From the sequence record OR352956.1: 64,000 nt of DNA, one strand, 5' to 3'. The stretch comes from Escherichia phage AV126. Below, piece by piece: positions 10,961-16,626 of this stretch. A model generated the notes under the pieces. That model searched no databases. It saw only the letters and a program-made list of their open reading frames with translations, and had not been told where the DNA came from. Positions within the stretch are counted from its first letter, which is position 1, and each line of letters opens with the position of its first letter. A program made the position numbers and the translations under genes.

Positions 10961-11125
10961 ATGATCTCTTTAGAATCAATAGCTTTTAAGAAGGGGTATA
11001 CCGCAGGGTTCAAGTTTGGTATGTTTAATAAAGTAAATCCATATTGTCCAATGACACACAAAAAGGAATTCGAAGAATGGGAAGATGGATTTTCTAAAGG
11101 CTATCAGGCAAAAGGTTGGTTGTAA
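10961..11125 (+). CDS. hypothetical protein (54 aa)
   Basis: ATG at 10961 after GAGGAGAAAG. Confidence 0.45.
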   Translation: MISLESIAFKKGYTAGFKFGMFNKVNPYCPMTHKKEFEEWEDGFSKGYQAKGWL

Positions 11126-11134
11126 GGAGAGAAT

Positions 11135-11299
11135 ATGATTTTAAACTTCATCATCAACTTGTGTTTGACATTGGGATTACTCTGTGCAATAGTATCCCCT
11201 CTGGTTGGTGAATATTGTTCTGAACTGGCGATGTTTATAGTTCTTGGTGCGGCTATTGCTAATATGTTTGTCGCTGCGATTTGTATGTTGTGGGAATAG
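11135..11299 (+). CDS. hypothetical small membrane protein (54 aa)
   Basis: ATG at 11135 after AAGGAGAG; hydrophobic throughout; below ORF-track length cut-off. Confidence 0.4.
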   Translation: MILNFIINLCLTLGLLCAIVSPLVGEYCSELAMFIVLGAAIANMFVAAICMLWE

Positions 11300-11310
11300 G
11301 AGGGAAGTTT

Positions 11311-11667
11311 ATGAAAAAATTAATCTTAGCCACATTGCTGGCTACCGTAAGCTTCACCACTTACGCTCAAAAATTTGTAGCAGTTAAAACGGATATTGGT
11401 AAAGATGTTGTGATCACAGGCAACAAGTTTTACTATACACCTGGGAATGGTGTTCTAGAAGAGTGCAAAGATGTTGAGGCATATACAGGAAAAGAAGATA
11501 ACACGGAACGTCCTTTTTATTCGATTATAGCTACTTGCAAAAATGAAATAGTAGCTATTAAACAATACAAAGATGCCCCTGGAGGAGAATACTTATTAGT
11601 CAAGAATATTAAGAGTGAAAAAACTGCAAAGTTTACAGTAATTATTTTAAAAGGAGAAACGTTCTAA
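11311..11667 (+). CDS. hypothetical secreted protein (118 aa)
   Basis: ATG at 11311 after GGAGGGAAG; signal-peptide-like MKKLILATLLATVSFTTYA. Confidence 0.55.
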   Translation: MKKLILATLLATVSFTTYAQKFVAVKTDIGKDVVITGNKFYYTPGNGVLEECKDVEAYTGKEDNTERPFYSIIATCKNEIVAIKQYKDAPGGEYLLVKNIKSEKTAKFTVIILKGETF

Positions 11668-12806
11668 TGAAATACACTATTTTTGGAGATGTAGCGGTTG
11701 TAAATAAGGAATATGGCGTTGAAGCTAATAAACTTCCTGCTGGAGTTTGGGTTGTCAACTGCGATCCGCACGGTAACTACTCTTTAGTGCGTGGCGAAAG
11801 TTTCTCTCTTCCGAACACTCTTTATGGGGAAACTAAAGACCGCGCCGCACATGTTATTAAAACATTTGCTCGTCGTAGTAAAGAAGGTAAAAATACTGGG
11901 GTGTTACTGACAGGGACAAAAGGCAGTGGTAAGACGATGTTAGCTAAACTGATTAGCATGTCTCTAATGTCCACAGAAGGTTTAGGTATTCCAACCATTT
12001 TGGTTACACAGCCTTACACAGATGCTGGCTTCTTAGAATTTATGAGTAAAATTACAGATCGTGCTGTTGTTTTATTTGACGAATTTGATAAAGTGTACGC
12101 TAAGAAAGAAGATCAGGAAGCACTGTTGACCTTGTTGGATGGAACAGGAAGTGGGAATAAACTTTACATCCTCACTAAAAATAGTGGTTATATCTCGGAA
12201 TATTTTGTAAACCGTCCTAGTCGTATCTACTACAGTTTCAATTACGATAAACTGTCTAGTGAAACTATGTTAGATTACTTGGATAAGAACTTGGTAAATA
12301 AAAAGCACGTAGATAACTTCCAACGTTTATGGGATGTTAGCACAGAGTTGTCTTTCGATGTTATTCAAGGCATTGTAGAAGAATTGAATTTCTATCCAAA
12401 AATGACTTTTAAAGAATGTCTTGAAATGATGGGTATTTCTTTAGGGAACGATGCTAAATGGAATGTGGCTTCTATCGTAGCTAATGGCAAAACCTTGAAG
12501 GTGAATTGGATCAATAACTGGCACGACTTCACCCCTACTAAGTTTTTGTCGGGTGCTTGTTCCCTGAACATCTATCTACAAAGTTTGAAAGATGATGAAG
12601 TGGAAGCAATGGAAACCAACAGTTATGTTATCCTGGATGAAGATGGTGATCCACATATTGATCTATGTGCAACGGCTGATGGTCTAACTTGTGATCTGAT
12701 TGAAGGTGGTAAGATTCTGGTTATGAGCACTACACCAGGAAACACTTTGCGAGTGGTGCTGGAGCCTGTAACACAACGTTCCACTACACTTGGTAGCGTG
12801 TTCTAA
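11667..12806 (+). CDS. P-loop NTPase (AAA-like ATPase, 379 aa)
   Basis: Walker A GTKGSGKTMLAK and Walker B-like VVLFDEFDK. Confidence 0.6.
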   Translation: MKYTIFGDVAVVNKEYGVEANKLPAGVWVVNCDPHGNYSLVRGESFSLPNTLYGETKDRAAHVIKTFARRSKEGKNTGVLLTGTKGSGKTMLAKLISMSLMSTEGLGIPTILVTQPYTDAGFLEFMSKITDRAVVLFDEFDKVYAKKEDQEALLTLLDGTGSGNKLYILTKNSGYISEYFVNRPSRIYYSFNYDKLSSETMLDYLDKNLVNKKHVDNFQRLWDVSTELSFDVIQGIVEELNFYPKMTFKECLEMMGISLGNDAKWNVASIVANGKTLKVNWINNWHDFTPTKFLSGACSLNIYLQSLKDDEVEAMETNSYVILDEDGDPHIDLCATADGLTCDLIEGGKILVMSTTPGNTLRVVLEPVTQRSTTLGSVF

Positions 12807-12812
12807 TAAAGA

Positions 12813-12835
12813 TGCCCCGCAAGGGGCATTTGTTA
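12813..12835 (+). terminator. terminator-like hairpin
   Basis: GATGCCCCGCAAGGGGCATTTGTT after stop of ATPase gene; weak T-tract. Confidence 0.45.
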
Positions 12836-12894
12836 TGGAGGGATTTTAGTTATTCTTTTGTTGTAGGCTCGCACTAATAGCTAAAGGGGGAGGT

Positions 12895-14355
12895 GTGCCA
12901 AAAATAGTCACTTGGGAACAATATAAAACAGATATAAAACAAGCTTATCAAGGTAAGTCTTGGACTGTTGTAGATTATATTGAGCCGTGGAACGGCAATA
13001 AAACTAAACTTAGATGCATCTGTGCTCTGCATGGAGAATGGAAAACAACAAGCATAAATACCGCTAAACTAGGGAGGGGTTGTCCAGAATGCGGTAGGGA
13101 GATTATAAGTAAAGCAGTATCTATAAACAAATCAAAAACCTGGGAGCAATATAAAGAAGAAGTGCAAACCGCTTACAATCAGGCAGGTAAGTTTTGGACT
13201 GTTACAGGATGGCACGGAGAATGGAAAGGATGGAATACTAAACTGGTTTGTTGTTGTGCTTTACATGGGGAGTGGAGGTCTACTTCTATATCTTCTGCGA
13301 AAAACGGGAGTGGATGCAGGAAGTGTATGGGAGAAGCAAACAGAGAAAGAACATCGATTGCATGGGAGAAACATAAAGAAGAAGTAGAAGAAGCTTATAA
13401 AGAAAAACCCTGGATTGTTAGAGGCTATGTGGAACCGTGGAACGGTTCCCGCACTAAGTTGATTTGTGAGTGTAAGGTTCATGGTCAATGGTGCACTACC
13501 ACTGTAAACAGTGCTAAACAAGGGACTGGATGCTACAGTTGTCAAAGAGAAATGACGAAACAAAGGAATACAATGGAGGATAAACAACATGTTGAAGATT
13601 TTATAAAAGCTTGTCCTGATAATGTAGAGCGTAAATATTATCGTAGCGATAGAGTAGATAGATTAGGTCGTCAGGTTTACTGGATTGTAGAATGTCCTAT
13701 ATGTGCAGAGGATGATTATTGTAAAGAAGGCTTATGCGATAATAAATTTGAGATGAAGATGAGTCATTTGAAAAGGGGTGGCCTTCCTTGCCGTTGTTCT
13801 AAATATTATCATTACACTCCTGAACAATGGGCCTACCGTATGACCAAAGCTTGCCAGGAACGAGGGGATCAATTTATAGGATTCATTGATAAGGTAAGCA
13901 ATAACAGCAAGTTTAAATATCTATGTAGGGAGCATGGAGAGCAAACGATCACACCTACCGATTATCTCAATGGGAAAGGTTGTCCAGGCTGTAAGAACAG
14001 AAATATGCAAGAATTTTACATCAATATTATTCTTGATGAGTACGGAGAAGACACGGGAGCTTACAAGTTGGGGATTGCAAAGGACAGTGATATCAGGATC
14101 AAAGGGCAGAATGCAAACAACAATTACTTTATGCGCCGTATAGCATTGTTCGATCTGCCGTCCTACCAAGCTTGCAGGGCGTTAGAGAGTAAGCTAAAGT
14201 CTAAGACTGATCAGATTCTACCGTCTATTGGCTGTGTAGAACGCTTGCACATGAAAGATGGTCATAGTGAAACCTTCCTGCGCGAGGATTTGGCTATCGT
14301 CTTAAGTGCTATCAACCAAGCAGGTGGAATAATGAGAGAGGAGGAAACATGTTAG
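12895..14355 (+). CDS. protein with tandem Cys/His zinc-ribbon-like repeats (486 aa)
   Basis: GTG start after AAAGGGGGAGG; three or more repeats of a ~70-aa module W..YK..AY....W.V..Y.EPWNG..TKL.C.C..HGEW.TTS.N.AK.G.GC..C. Confidence 0.55.
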   Translation: MPKIVTWEQYKTDIKQAYQGKSWTVVDYIEPWNGNKTKLRCICALHGEWKTTSINTAKLGRGCPECGREIISKAVSINKSKTWEQYKEEVQTAYNQAGKFWTVTGWHGEWKGWNTKLVCCCALHGEWRSTSISSAKNGSGCRKCMGEANRERTSIAWEKHKEEVEEAYKEKPWIVRGYVEPWNGSRTKLICECKVHGQWCTTTVNSAKQGTGCYSCQREMTKQRNTMEDKQHVEDFIKACPDNVERKYYRSDRVDRLGRQVYWIVECPICAEDDYCKEGLCDNKFEMKMSHLKRGGLPCRCSKYYHYTPEQWAYRMTKACQERGDQFIGFIDKVSNNSKFKYLCREHGEQTITPTDYLNGKGCPGCKNRNMQEFYINIILDEYGEDTGAYKLGIAKDSDIRIKGQNANNNYFMRRIALFDLPSYQACRALESKLKSKTDQILPSIGCVERLHMKDGHSETFLREDLAIVLSAINQAGGIMREEETC

Positions 14356-14714
14356 TTGACGTTCAAATTATGCGCAACGAAAGAATGGACTTCTTTGAAG
14401 CAGTAGAGAAACATCTGATCCGATGGGACTATGAATTTGTTCCTGCTGGATGTGGACCAGTAGAGCATTTAGCGGAAGACGACGATGTATACATGATCAT
14501 TCGTCAAGTGTACCAGACAGACCAGTGTGAAGAAACTCCCGAACTGATTTTGTTTGAGTGTAAAGATCTTGCAAAATATTTTGACTATGGCGGAAAAGAG
14601 GGTCATAATCTCTCCAGATACAATAAACGTCTACTTATCTTAGACTACATGCGGAACAACAAACACAAACTCATCGACGCAGACGCAGTTTATGGCTACT
14701 GGTGGATGGACTAA
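14349..14714 (+). CDS. hypothetical protein (121 aa)
   Basis: ORF with GAGGAGG SD. Confidence 0.5.
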   Translation: MLVDVQIMRNERMDFFEAVEKHLIRWDYEFVPAGCGPVEHLAEDDDVYMIIRQVYQTDQCEETPELILFECKDLAKYFDYGGKEGHNLSRYNKRLLILDYMRNNKHKLIDADAVYGYWWMD

Positions 14715-14727
14715 CAAAGGAGAAACT

Positions 14728-14907
14728 ATGGCACGTTTAGCAGATCATGAAATCTTTAAACCTATTCTGAACCACTATGATGAACTTAAAGCAGTGTTGG
14801 ATTGTTATAGAGAGGATGAAGAACGTTTGGAAGTCAATCTTAAGATAGTTCTGATGAAAGCTTTTCAAGACGGGCAAGCTAAAGTTTTAGAAGGCATGAA
14901 AAAATGA
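14728..14907 (+). CDS. hypothetical protein (59 aa)
   Basis: ATG at 14728 after AAGGAGAAA. Confidence 0.45.
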   Translation: MARLADHEIFKPILNHYDELKAVLDCYREDEERLEVNLKIVLMKAFQDGQAKVLEGMKK

Positions 14908-15446
14908 GAATAACTGATGAATATGTATTCTTCTTTTCACATAAAGATGTGTTTAGTAATTGGTATATTGCACCCTTTACAGAAACTGAACTAGGTTACA
15001 ATGAGACTTTCTGTTGTGTTGAGCAATATATGATGTGGCGTAAGGCTTTGCTGTTCAAGGATCATGCGATTGCAGCAGCTATCCTTGATCACTCAACTAT
15101 ACGTGACAACGAGAGGAAACAAGCATACTACAAACGTATGGGTCGAGCGGTATCTGGTTTTAATAATGATATGTGGGAAGAGAACCGTGAGCGTATTGTT
15201 ATGCGAGGCTTATGCTTGAAATATGTACAGAATCCAGATTTGTATGCAGACTTACACCTTTACCAATACAAAACGTTTGTTGAAGCAAGCCCCTACGATA
15301 AGGTTTACGGAATTGGAATGGGGATGTATGAACCAGGGGTGCTAAACCCTGCTACCTGGAAAGGGCAGAATCTTTTAGGCAAATATCATAATAAACTGAT
15401 CGAAATACTTTTCCCAGACAAAATACCGCAAAGACGATATTTGTGA
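14904..15446 (+). CDS. NADAR-domain protein (YbiA/DUF1768-like, 180 aa)
   Basis: FFFSHKDVFSNWY..., CVEQYMMWRKALLF, RMGRAV and C-terminal EASPYDKVYGIGMG match the NADAR pattern. Confidence 0.7.
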   Translation: MRITDEYVFFFSHKDVFSNWYIAPFTETELGYNETFCCVEQYMMWRKALLFKDHAIAAAILDHSTIRDNERKQAYYKRMGRAVSGFNNDMWEENRERIVMRGLCLKYVQNPDLYADLHLYQYKTFVEASPYDKVYGIGMGMYEPGVLNPATWKGQNLLGKYHNKLIEILFPDKIPQRRYL

Positions 15447-15501
15447 TATTTTAACTTTTTTCATTTTTAGAACAAAGGTGTCACTTTGTAGCACAGAAAT
15501 A

Positions 15502-15537
15502 AGGCTCCTACAGCACCGTAGAGAGCCTGTTATTTTG
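15502..15537 (+). terminator. rho-independent terminator candidate
   Basis: AGGCTCCTACAGCACCGTAGAGAGCCT hairpin followed by GTTATTTTG, downstream of NADAR gene. Confidence 0.55.
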
Positions 15538-15670
15538 TCCTATACAAACCCTTGTCTTTTTCAGTTTGCATCACTAGGATTCGATCTGAGTGGGTTCCTG
15601 AAGGTCTGCCAATAAGATTAAAGGTTATCTCAAATTCCCACTACCTATTATCTCAAAAATCCCTCAAATT

Positions 15671-15737
15671 ATTTAAACTTTTTAAGAATTTACAAAAGTG
15701 AAAGTTGAAAACCAAAATTTAAAGTTTAGGAAAAATT
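15671..15737. repeat. ~67-bp AT-rich direct repeat, copy 1
   Basis: ATTTAAACTTTTTAAGAATTTACAAAAGTGAAAGTTGAAAACCAAAATTTAAAGTTTAGGAAAAATT; about 80% identical to copy at 15809-15875. Confidence 0.7.
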
Positions 15738-15808
15738 ATCTTAGAATGTTAGATACAAACAAAACTCAAAAGTCAAGGAAAATTTTAAAAATTTTGCGCG
15801 CCCACAGT

Positions 15809-15875
15809 ATTTAAAGTTTTTTTGCTTTTACAAAAATGAAAGTACAAAAGCAAAATTTAAAGTTTACAAAAATTT
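15809..15875. repeat. ~67-bp AT-rich direct repeat, copy 2
   Basis: ATTTAAAGTTTTTTTGCTTTTACAAAAATGAAAGTACAAAAGCAAAATTTAAAGTTTACAAAAATTT. Confidence 0.7.
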
Positions 15876-15908
15876 ATGCAGGTGGGAATGAGAAGAGTTC
15901 TCATGTGG

Positions 15909-15935
15909 AAATGCAAATGATAATGATTCGCATTT
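15909..15935. promoter_or_regulatory. Fur-box-like palindromic operator
   Basis: AAATGCAAATGATAATGATTCGCATTT; core TGATAATgATTcgCA matches the 7-1-7 Fur consensus TGATAATnATTATCA at 12/14. Confidence 0.45.
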
Positions 15936-15951
15936 AAGTTTATAAACGAGA

Positions 15952-15993
15952 TTGATTCTTATTCAATAAGGTAAATGATAATCATTCTCATTT
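15952..15993 (+). promoter_or_regulatory. sigma70-like promoter overlapped by Fur-box-like operator
   Basis: TTGATT -35, 17-nt spacer, ATGATA/GATAAT -10 region; operator AAATGATAATCATTCTCATTT (13/14 to 7-1-7 Fur consensus) overlaps the -10. Confidence 0.5.
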
Positions 15994-16221
15994 AGAGAAT
16001 GACGCGCAGGGGCGGTGTTTGTCTCGCGCTCCCGTGTCCCCTCGCCATGTAATAAGAATAACAGATCCAACCAGGAAAGCAAGCGATTATTTTATCTTTA
16101 CATTTCTTTACAAATATATAGCGCCCAGCCTACCGGCGATCAACCTTCCAACCAGCGCCCCTGGTATGTTAGCCCCGCCTTTACGCCGTGGGGTGGCGCT
16201 TCCTCTTCTGTATGTAAAACA

Positions 16222-16262
16222 GTATAAGCCCGATCCCTGGGCTTGTCAAGATTATTTTTTGT
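16222..16262. terminator. hairpin plus T-run (possible bidirectional terminator)
   Basis: AAGCCCGATCCCTGGGCTT then GTCAAGATTATTTTTTGTTTTC; just beyond stop of minus ORF 16252..16518; minus sense also reads TTGACA-17-TATACT. Confidence 0.4.
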
Positions 16263-16518
16263 TTTCTTGCCAGGATAGGACACCTAACCAAAAATGCATA
16301 TCGCCCCGCGCCGCTGGCGGGATCTTGCTTTCCCCGCCGCCACTGCAAGCCCATAAATAACCATCAGCAAACGGATCAAAATGTTCTATCTCTTCCACTT
16401 TATGATCGCCCAGGTTGAGAACGGTTTCAACCTTTAAGCCCGTTGCGCTTGCTACCTGGTGCACCGTGCCGCCTTGCCAGCCCAATGAGTGCATAAGGTG
16501 TAATGTAGTATTTGTCAT
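16252..16518 (-). CDS. hypothetical protein (88 aa) in GC-rich island
   Basis: Only minus-strand ORF in the plus-oriented region; GC-rich codon usage unlike flanks; GGCGATACC upstream of ATG. Confidence 0.45.
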   Translation of the reverse strand: MTNTTLHLMHSLGWQGGTVHQVASATGLKVETVLNLGDHKVEEIEHFDPFADGYLWACSGGGESKIPPAARGDMHFWLGVLSWQENKK

Positions 16519-16626
16519 GGTATCGCCCTTTCTTTGATGTGCGCCCTGGTTGGCGCGGTAGAAAGATAATAGCCCTTTTCTTTATATATAGCAAGCAAAA
16601 AGAAAATAAAAAAGATTGAAAAATGG

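Follow-up and report, generated by a model that had tools for sequence, protein, structure and literature searches.

The open reading frame (ORF) at 12895–14355 in the window, the 64,000-nt stretch of Escherichia phage AV126 (OR352956.1) that was analysed here, is most probably a free-standing homing endonuclease gene of Phapecoctavirus, encoding five CapR modules followed by a GIY-YIG-type nuclease domain. The window comes from a phAPEC8/ESCO13-like E. coli myovirus with a genome of ~150 kb, and bases 11000–16000 are 99.3% identical to ESCO13 and to many other records. The combination of a predicted DNA-binding array with a nuclease, an intergenic cassette, empty sites, and diverged alleles that take its place on backbones which are nearly identical fits a free-standing homing endonuclease; intergenic cassettes, empty sites and allele replacement are signatures of the free-standing homing endonuclease genes of phage T4 (PMC2988022). 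In the mechanism that we propose, the five zinc-stabilised CapR modules, arranged like beads on a string, would jointly recognise a long DNA target, with the C-terminal GIY-YIG-type (T5orf172-like) domain cutting near it. During mixed infection, the break in a genome without this allele would be repaired from the allele-carrying genome, and this repair would copy the cassette into the intergenic site between an ATPase gene and the next gene.

The protein of 486 amino acids (aa), with an N-terminus (MPKIVTWE) common to its homologs, shares 99% identity with both P0001 and its ESCO13 counterpart. The latter bears the annotation 'endonuclease', which is also the RefSeq name for the ortholog, and in a viral structure library it appears under the name 'CapR homology domain-containing protein'. 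An earlier note, made from the sequence alone, had called the architecture uncommon, which does not agree with the presence of relatives in 416 phage records (tblastn), a match to PHROG 681 ('endonuclease', E = 8.5e-83) and a published description of the class (PMC10448857). An NCBIfam scan of the protein and a PADLOC scan for the gene gave no match, and hence neither a curated prokaryotic family nor a tie to known defence systems was found. No paralogs of the endonuclease were detected in the window, with the only matches being the protein itself and its internal repeats.

Tandem CapR modules

The earlier note had described the 486-aa ORF, which is present on the plus strand, as containing at least three repeats of ~70 aa followed by further CxxC pairs. 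Pairwise local alignment of the first three units (R1 to R3, Table 1) gave scores of 191–216, versus 28–30 ± 6 in 1000 shuffles (z-scores of 27–34), and none of the 1000 shuffles aligned as well; a lack of significance, which the note had named as grounds for dropping its claim, was thus not found. The alignment of R1–R3 agrees with the consensus that had been proposed (W..YK..AY...W.V..Y.EPWNG..TKL.C.C..HGEW.TTS.N.AK.G.GC..C), and identity among the three units was 44–52% for protein and 57–61% for DNA. The repeat length did need revision, as the direct repeats in the DNA begin at 12913, 13141 and 13363, and this spacing of 228 and 222 nt corresponds to a period of 74–78 aa. The further CxxC pairs belong to another two modules of this family that have diverged, with R5 still detectably related to R1–R3 (z = 4–10) and R4 detected by the Pfam CapR profile alone (E = 1.6e-10). 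Together the five tandem modules make up 76% of the protein.

The Pfam CapR homology domain (PF21817) matched the whole protein in five stretches with 100.2 bits (cut-off 24.2, E = 7.4e-29). When the modules were scanned singly, R1 (26.4 bits), R4 (41.4 bits) and R5 (37.7 bits) were above the cut-off, and R2 (22.5 bits) and R3 (22.6 bits) were just under it. From these sequence matches, all five modules are classed as CapR homology domains, which are predicted DNA-binding zinc fingers. A satellite of a Vibrio phage encodes CapR itself, a small repressor with ligand pairs of the form CxxC...CxC, in which all four cysteines are needed to bind DNA (PMC8096241). Two such pairs of candidate zinc ligands, ~20–28 residues apart in CapR, were found in the modules, as C-x-C-x2-H and C-x2-C separated by 16–19 residues in R1–R3, C267-x2-C270 and C299-x-C301 separated by 28 residues in R4, and C344-x2-H347 and C363-x2-C366 separated by 15 residues in R5. 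In a family alignment of 25 sequences, the R4 and R5 ligands and C193, C213 and C216 of R3 showed no variation, and relatives also match DUF723 and DUF4379 (Pfam 'probable treble clef zinc finger').

In the AlphaFold model, each module consists of a helix, three strands, a short helix and a helix beginning at the CxxC, with the first ligands located in the hairpin of strands 2 and 3 and the CxxC at the helix start (helices 64–79, 142–152 and 214–225). These modelled positions suggest a treble-clef-like site and not a classical zinc ribbon, and the zinc-ribbon label of the earlier note is probably wrong. The predicted local distance difference test score (pLDDT) of R5 was ~90, and in the full model the linker residues 70–79 had low confidence and the overall predicted template modelling score (pTM) was 0.46, which indicates that the modules may fold independently as beads on a string. 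Structure prediction, which the note had advised, was in keeping with its modular architecture and probably not with its zinc-ribbon fold, and revealed a nuclease fold in aa 371–486 that the note had overlooked. There is a slim possibility that the CapR module is a zinc-stabilised fold resembling the double-stranded RNA-binding domain, adapted to DNA.

The C-terminal nuclease domain

The C-terminal 116 aa are not part of the repeats, and we assign them to a GIY-YIG-fold, T5orf172-like nuclease on the basis of the order of the fold, the domain matches of relatives, PHROG 681, the invariant residues and an alignment with Gp165 of vibriophage ICP1. When modelled together with R5, aa 371–486 reached a pLDDT of 90.6 and had the order beta-beta-alpha-beta-alpha-alpha, the three-stranded sheet with helices that characterises the GIY-YIG fold. 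Weak T5orf172 matches were found among the relatives (11/22 and 22/35 members, best E = 1.1e-4), as were weak MUG113 matches (8/22 and 14/35 members), and PHROG 681 spans the domain with E = 5e-17. The alignment of 25 sequences shows no variation at Y375-I-N377, K391, G393, I394, R401, Q405, N406, E431, D455, G456, E459 and T460. Nine of these residues, K391, G393, R401, E431, D455, G456, E459 and T460 among them, do not vary across 35 distant relatives either, in which Y375 is at least 90% conserved. In the model, Y375, R401 and E431 are placed in the expected elements (strand 1, helix 1 and helix 2, respectively), and in a BLAST alignment K391, G393, R401 and E431 pair with their counterparts in ICP1 Gp165. 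R401 and E431 are therefore named here as putative catalytic residues; in ICP1 Odn, cleavage depends on the Glu that corresponds in alignment to the catalytic Glu of I-TevI (PMC8263062). Purifying selection was detected in every domain, with a ratio of nonsynonymous to synonymous substitution rates (dN/dS) of 0.16–0.26, and of 0.16 in the nuclease domain.

The nuclease domain represents a small diverged sub-lineage, as a search of 1.84 billion representatives gave only 36 clusters at E ≤ 1e-3. A Foldseek search of the full-length model against the PDB found no match at E ≤ 0.001, although global matches mean little for a multi-domain model with a pTM of 0.46. Profile matches to the PDB were at chance level (the ribosomal L31 zinc motif at E = 0.035, NrfH and Cas6) and were discarded, as was an HNH nuclease, since the match to PHROG 559 is restricted to the zinc modules (aa 8–248) and Pfam finds no HNH family. 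In a 22-kb metagenome contig, a single ORF of 669 aa (P0002) contains two complete CapR-module and nuclease endonucleases fused head-to-tail, which may have originated from two adjacent cassettes joined through the loss of a stop codon.

The intergenic site and its alleles

A query consisting of the two joined flanks was used to survey the site in 70 related records. The flanks were separated, and the site thus occupied, in 67 of these, and were adjacent in two (phiWec188 and phiWec190), where the terminator is directly followed by the ribosome-binding site and ATG, and the gap between the flanking genes is 45 nt. The intergenic placement between conserved genes was confirmed, with flanks 95–99% identical in ~65 records. 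Similarity to phages with other alleles ends abruptly at 12809–12836, just past the ATPase stop codon or the terminator hairpin, and restarts at 14337–14339, 10 nt ahead of the downstream ATG. The hairpin, which forms the upstream edge of the variable cassette, is kept in ukendt and in phiWec190, where the site is empty, and another hairpin takes its place in tuntematon and UP17. The PHROG 24465 gene downstream of the cassette adjoins the ATPase gene in the empty-site phage. The remaining record of the 70, phage EP57 (OR544956), was ruled out as an empty site, since a 1540-bp deletion (window 12797–14336) has joined the ATPase ORF and the one after it in a single reading frame, giving a coding sequence of 1506 nt. 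The EP57 record, which has several other deletions, including ones nearby, and is 20 kb shorter than its relatives, could reflect either a genuine deletion in the phage or a fault of assembly. B15, ABPW7 and PsgM04F are Phapecoctavirus genomes of 95–98% identity whose records name Campylobacter, Acinetobacter and Pseudomonas as hosts, and these host labels are doubtful.

The 486-aa allele was found in ~22 records, and most others have strongly diverged alleles at the same spot, with 31–37% identity and 3–4 modules. Alleles of other lengths are those of ukendt (402 aa), UP17 (400 aa), phiWec179 (337 aa) and tuntematon (332 aa). The nuclease domains at this site fall into two lineages with 31–37% identity between them, one comprising the window and phiWec179 (90% identical) and the other ukendt, tuntematon and UP17 (~90% identical), and the zinc modules within each lineage are far more diverged (38–69% identity). 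Members of the wider family mostly have three modules and some have four, with five in the window protein, and alleles with 3, 4 or 5 modules are all present at this one locus; the phiWec179 allele, for example, is 80% identical in DNA to window 13363–14355 and has no R1 and R2. Flank identity to the window reaches 99.0% in phages with other alleles and goes down to 96.3% in phages with the same allele, showing that allele type is independent of backbone similarity and is subject to horizontal exchange. Synonymous divergence (dS) between window 13363–14352 and phiWec179 (1693–2703) falls along the gene, from 2.3 in R3 to 1.8 in R4, 0.77 in R5 and 0.44 in the nuclease domain, which suggests recombination inside the gene or a quicker turnover of its DNA-binding end.

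These alleles form a clean natural series, with one intergenic site in ~70 near-identical coliphage genomes, two lineages, three, four or five modules and empty sites. Such a series is convenient for asking whether T5orf172/CapR endonucleases home, and could reveal how the number of modules sets target specificity. We give a slim chance to the number and order of modules being a simple additive recognition code, in which each module of ~78 aa reads its own DNA sub-site; if so, the gain of R1 and R2 would have lengthened or redirected the target, and a programmable scaffold for DNA binding could be drawn from the allele series.

The features of the locus are listed in Table 1. A structured leader hiding the start codon was not indicated, as the predicted fold was no better than that of shuffled sequences (z = -1.1), and Rfam and tRNA scans around the locus gave no hits.

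Table 1. Coordinates of the endonuclease cassette, its domains and its neighbours in the window.
Feature	Position	Strand	Details
Endonuclease ORF	12895..14355	+	486 aa, GTG start, 28 Cys
Predicted CapR module R1 (aa 1-78)	12895..13128	+	Pfam CapR E = 8.2e-6; z = 30-34 vs R2/R3; candidate ligands C41, C43, H46, C63, C66
Predicted CapR module R2 (aa 79-156)	13129..13362	+	Pfam CapR E = 1.4e-4; z = 27-30; candidate ligands C119-C121, H124, C141, C144
Predicted CapR module R3 (aa 157-234)	13363..13596	+	C193, C213, C216 invariant in family; C191, H196 variable
Predicted CapR module R4 (aa 235-305), diverged	13597..13809	+	C267, C270, C299, C301 invariant
Predicted CapR module R5 (aa 306-370)	13810..14004	+	Pfam CapR E = 2.4e-9; C344, H347, C363, C366 invariant
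GIY-YIG-fold (T5orf172-like) nuclease domain (aa 371-486)	14005..14352	+	
Variable endonuclease cassette (own leader and ORF)	12838..14338	+	between terminator and ribosome-binding site of next gene
Shared 3' end	14339..14351	+	GAGGAAACATG; ribosome-binding site and ATG (14349) of downstream gene within last endonuclease codons
AAA-ATPase gene, conserved upstream neighbour	11667..12806	+	Pfam AAA E = 8.7e-7, PHROG 2376
Terminator-like hairpin after AAA-ATPase gene	12812..12829	+	ATGCCCC-GCAA-GGGGCAT then TTTGTTAT
121-aa protein of unknown function, conserved downstream neighbour	14349..14714	+	PHROG 24465

Known systems, alternative explanations and other features of the window

Barth, Dunham and Seed reported in 2023 that 87% of T5orf172 endonucleases have CapR, DUF723 or DUF4379 zinc fingers, which are often repeated, and that domains are exchanged (PMC10448857). 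In putative homing endonucleases of ICP1, homologs of CapR provide the DNA-binding part (PMC8096241), and the CapR-domain T5orf172 proteins in this set are Gp165, Gp174, Gp121, Gp53 and Gp130 (PMC8096241, PMC10448857). Gp165 is homologous to the window protein over aa 182–479 (E = 1e-29) and has the same order of repeated CapR modules and a C-terminal T5orf172-type nuclease, with four CapR stretches and a T5orf172 score that is also just under the cut-off (18 bits). The presence of both the ICP1 endonucleases and the window gene varies among close relatives, but the window phage is a Stephanstirmvirinae coliphage rather than a vibriophage, and its protein has five modules. [quoted passage not shown] ICP1 Odn (Gp88), for which DNA cleavage has been shown, resembles the window protein in its T5orf172/GIY-YIG-type catalytic domain with conserved Arg and Glu (PMC8263062) and, by description, in the separate N-terminal DNA-binding domain that gives specificity, but this is a RepA_N domain and Odn targets satellite replication origins. 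The T4 Seg proteins and I-TevI have an N-terminal nuclease, with NUMOD and helix-turn-helix domains instead of CapR (PMC2988022), and have no detectable sequence similarity to the window protein. The structure-specific GIY-YIG nucleases SLX1 and HIGLE, with only 9–14% identity, are alike in fold only; they act in eukaryotic repair and have a partner domain of the RING or PHD type.

Read as a homing endonuclease gene, the ORF is an ordinary selfish gene of an E. coli phage, of a design that is already described and publicly annotated, and the feature is already known. It carries little weight as a discovery because 99%-identical entries are already annotated and the architecture was described in 2023. 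This Phapecoctavirus locus is not discussed in the cited literature, and the allele series thus adds one minor new point to a class that is already familiar.

Several points weigh against a homing endonuclease. Homing by experiment is not reported in the cited literature for CapR-module T5orf172 endonucleases. There are only two empty sites, both in phages with flanks just 79% identical, so that the comparison is not between near-isogenic genomes, and no co-conversion gradient of single nucleotide polymorphisms was found beside the cassette. R401 and E431 are proposed as catalytic from the order of the fold and a BLAST alignment and not from a residue-level superposition, and no solved structure was matched by sequence when family profiles were compared with the PDB. 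The window protein scores 12.8 bits with T5orf172 (PF10544), under the cut-off of 20 (E = 0.17), and as weak matches recur consistently in its relatives, the domain is named T5orf172-like and not a certified member. Finally, the 88-nt leader of the gene has no σ70-like promoter, and a GGAGG sequence is only ~1 nt from the start codon; with the terminator upstream and the GTG start, this means that expression may be weak and probably depends on read-through, in which it resembles several free-standing endonucleases of T4.

The high occupancy of the site, with 67 of 70 records filled and two empty, resembles near-fixation rather than spreading, and gives some support to the main alternative, a domesticated or weaponised relative of homing endonucleases, which no longer homes and serves the phage by excluding competing Phapecoctaviruses or satellites, or by repressing a promoter. 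Purifying selection in all domains is in line with such a role, the ribosome-binding site of the next gene within the 3′ end of the endonuclease gene favours retention, and there are precedents in Odn for exclusion (PMC8263062) and CapR for repression (PMC8096241), with the autorepressor I-TevI as a further example of the latter. We nevertheless consider this unlikely, since two lineages with 31–37% identity and differing module numbers that swap at one site on nearly identical backbones form a pattern expected of competing selfish cassettes, and PADLOC gave no match; furthermore, the exclusion of rival genomes is a normal consequence of homing, and this explanation therefore overlaps with that of an active homing endonuclease.

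Homing endonuclease genes commonly degenerate once fixed (PMC10448857), and the weak translation signals and T5orf172 score under the threshold might reflect a decaying, catalytically dead remnant, kept since its deletion would harm the expression of its neighbours. This is improbable given the intact frame of 486 codons, the low dN/dS of the nuclease domain, a confident model, and motif residues that are invariant in 25 members, nine of them also in the 35 distant relatives. The suggestion of the earlier note, a modular scaffold binding nucleic acid or protein, stands in so far as five CapR modules (PF21817) predicted to bind DNA occupy three quarters of the protein, but a non-enzymatic zinc-ribbon scaffold is hardly credible for a protein which ends in a conserved GIY-YIG-fold domain with invariant Arg and Glu.

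Downstream of the locus, the ORF at 14904–15446 encodes a NADAR-domain protein (Pfam E = 3.9e-35), and its label of 'GTP cyclohydrolase II' in several GenBank records is probably a mis-annotation. The adjacent non-coding stretch (~15447–16600) has a 75-nt AT-rich direct repeat (15665–15739 and 15803–15877, 81% identity), copies of which recur in related phages. The same stretch contains three to four palindromic units of ~19 nt with 29-nt spacing (15887–15994), of which the palindrome at 15971–15989, GTAAATGATAATCATTCTC, fits the E. coli Fur-box consensus GATAATGATAATCATTATC at 16/19 positions (0.02 expected per window); judged by their sequence, these palindromes may be a cluster of sites for Fur or another repressor in a phage intergenic region.
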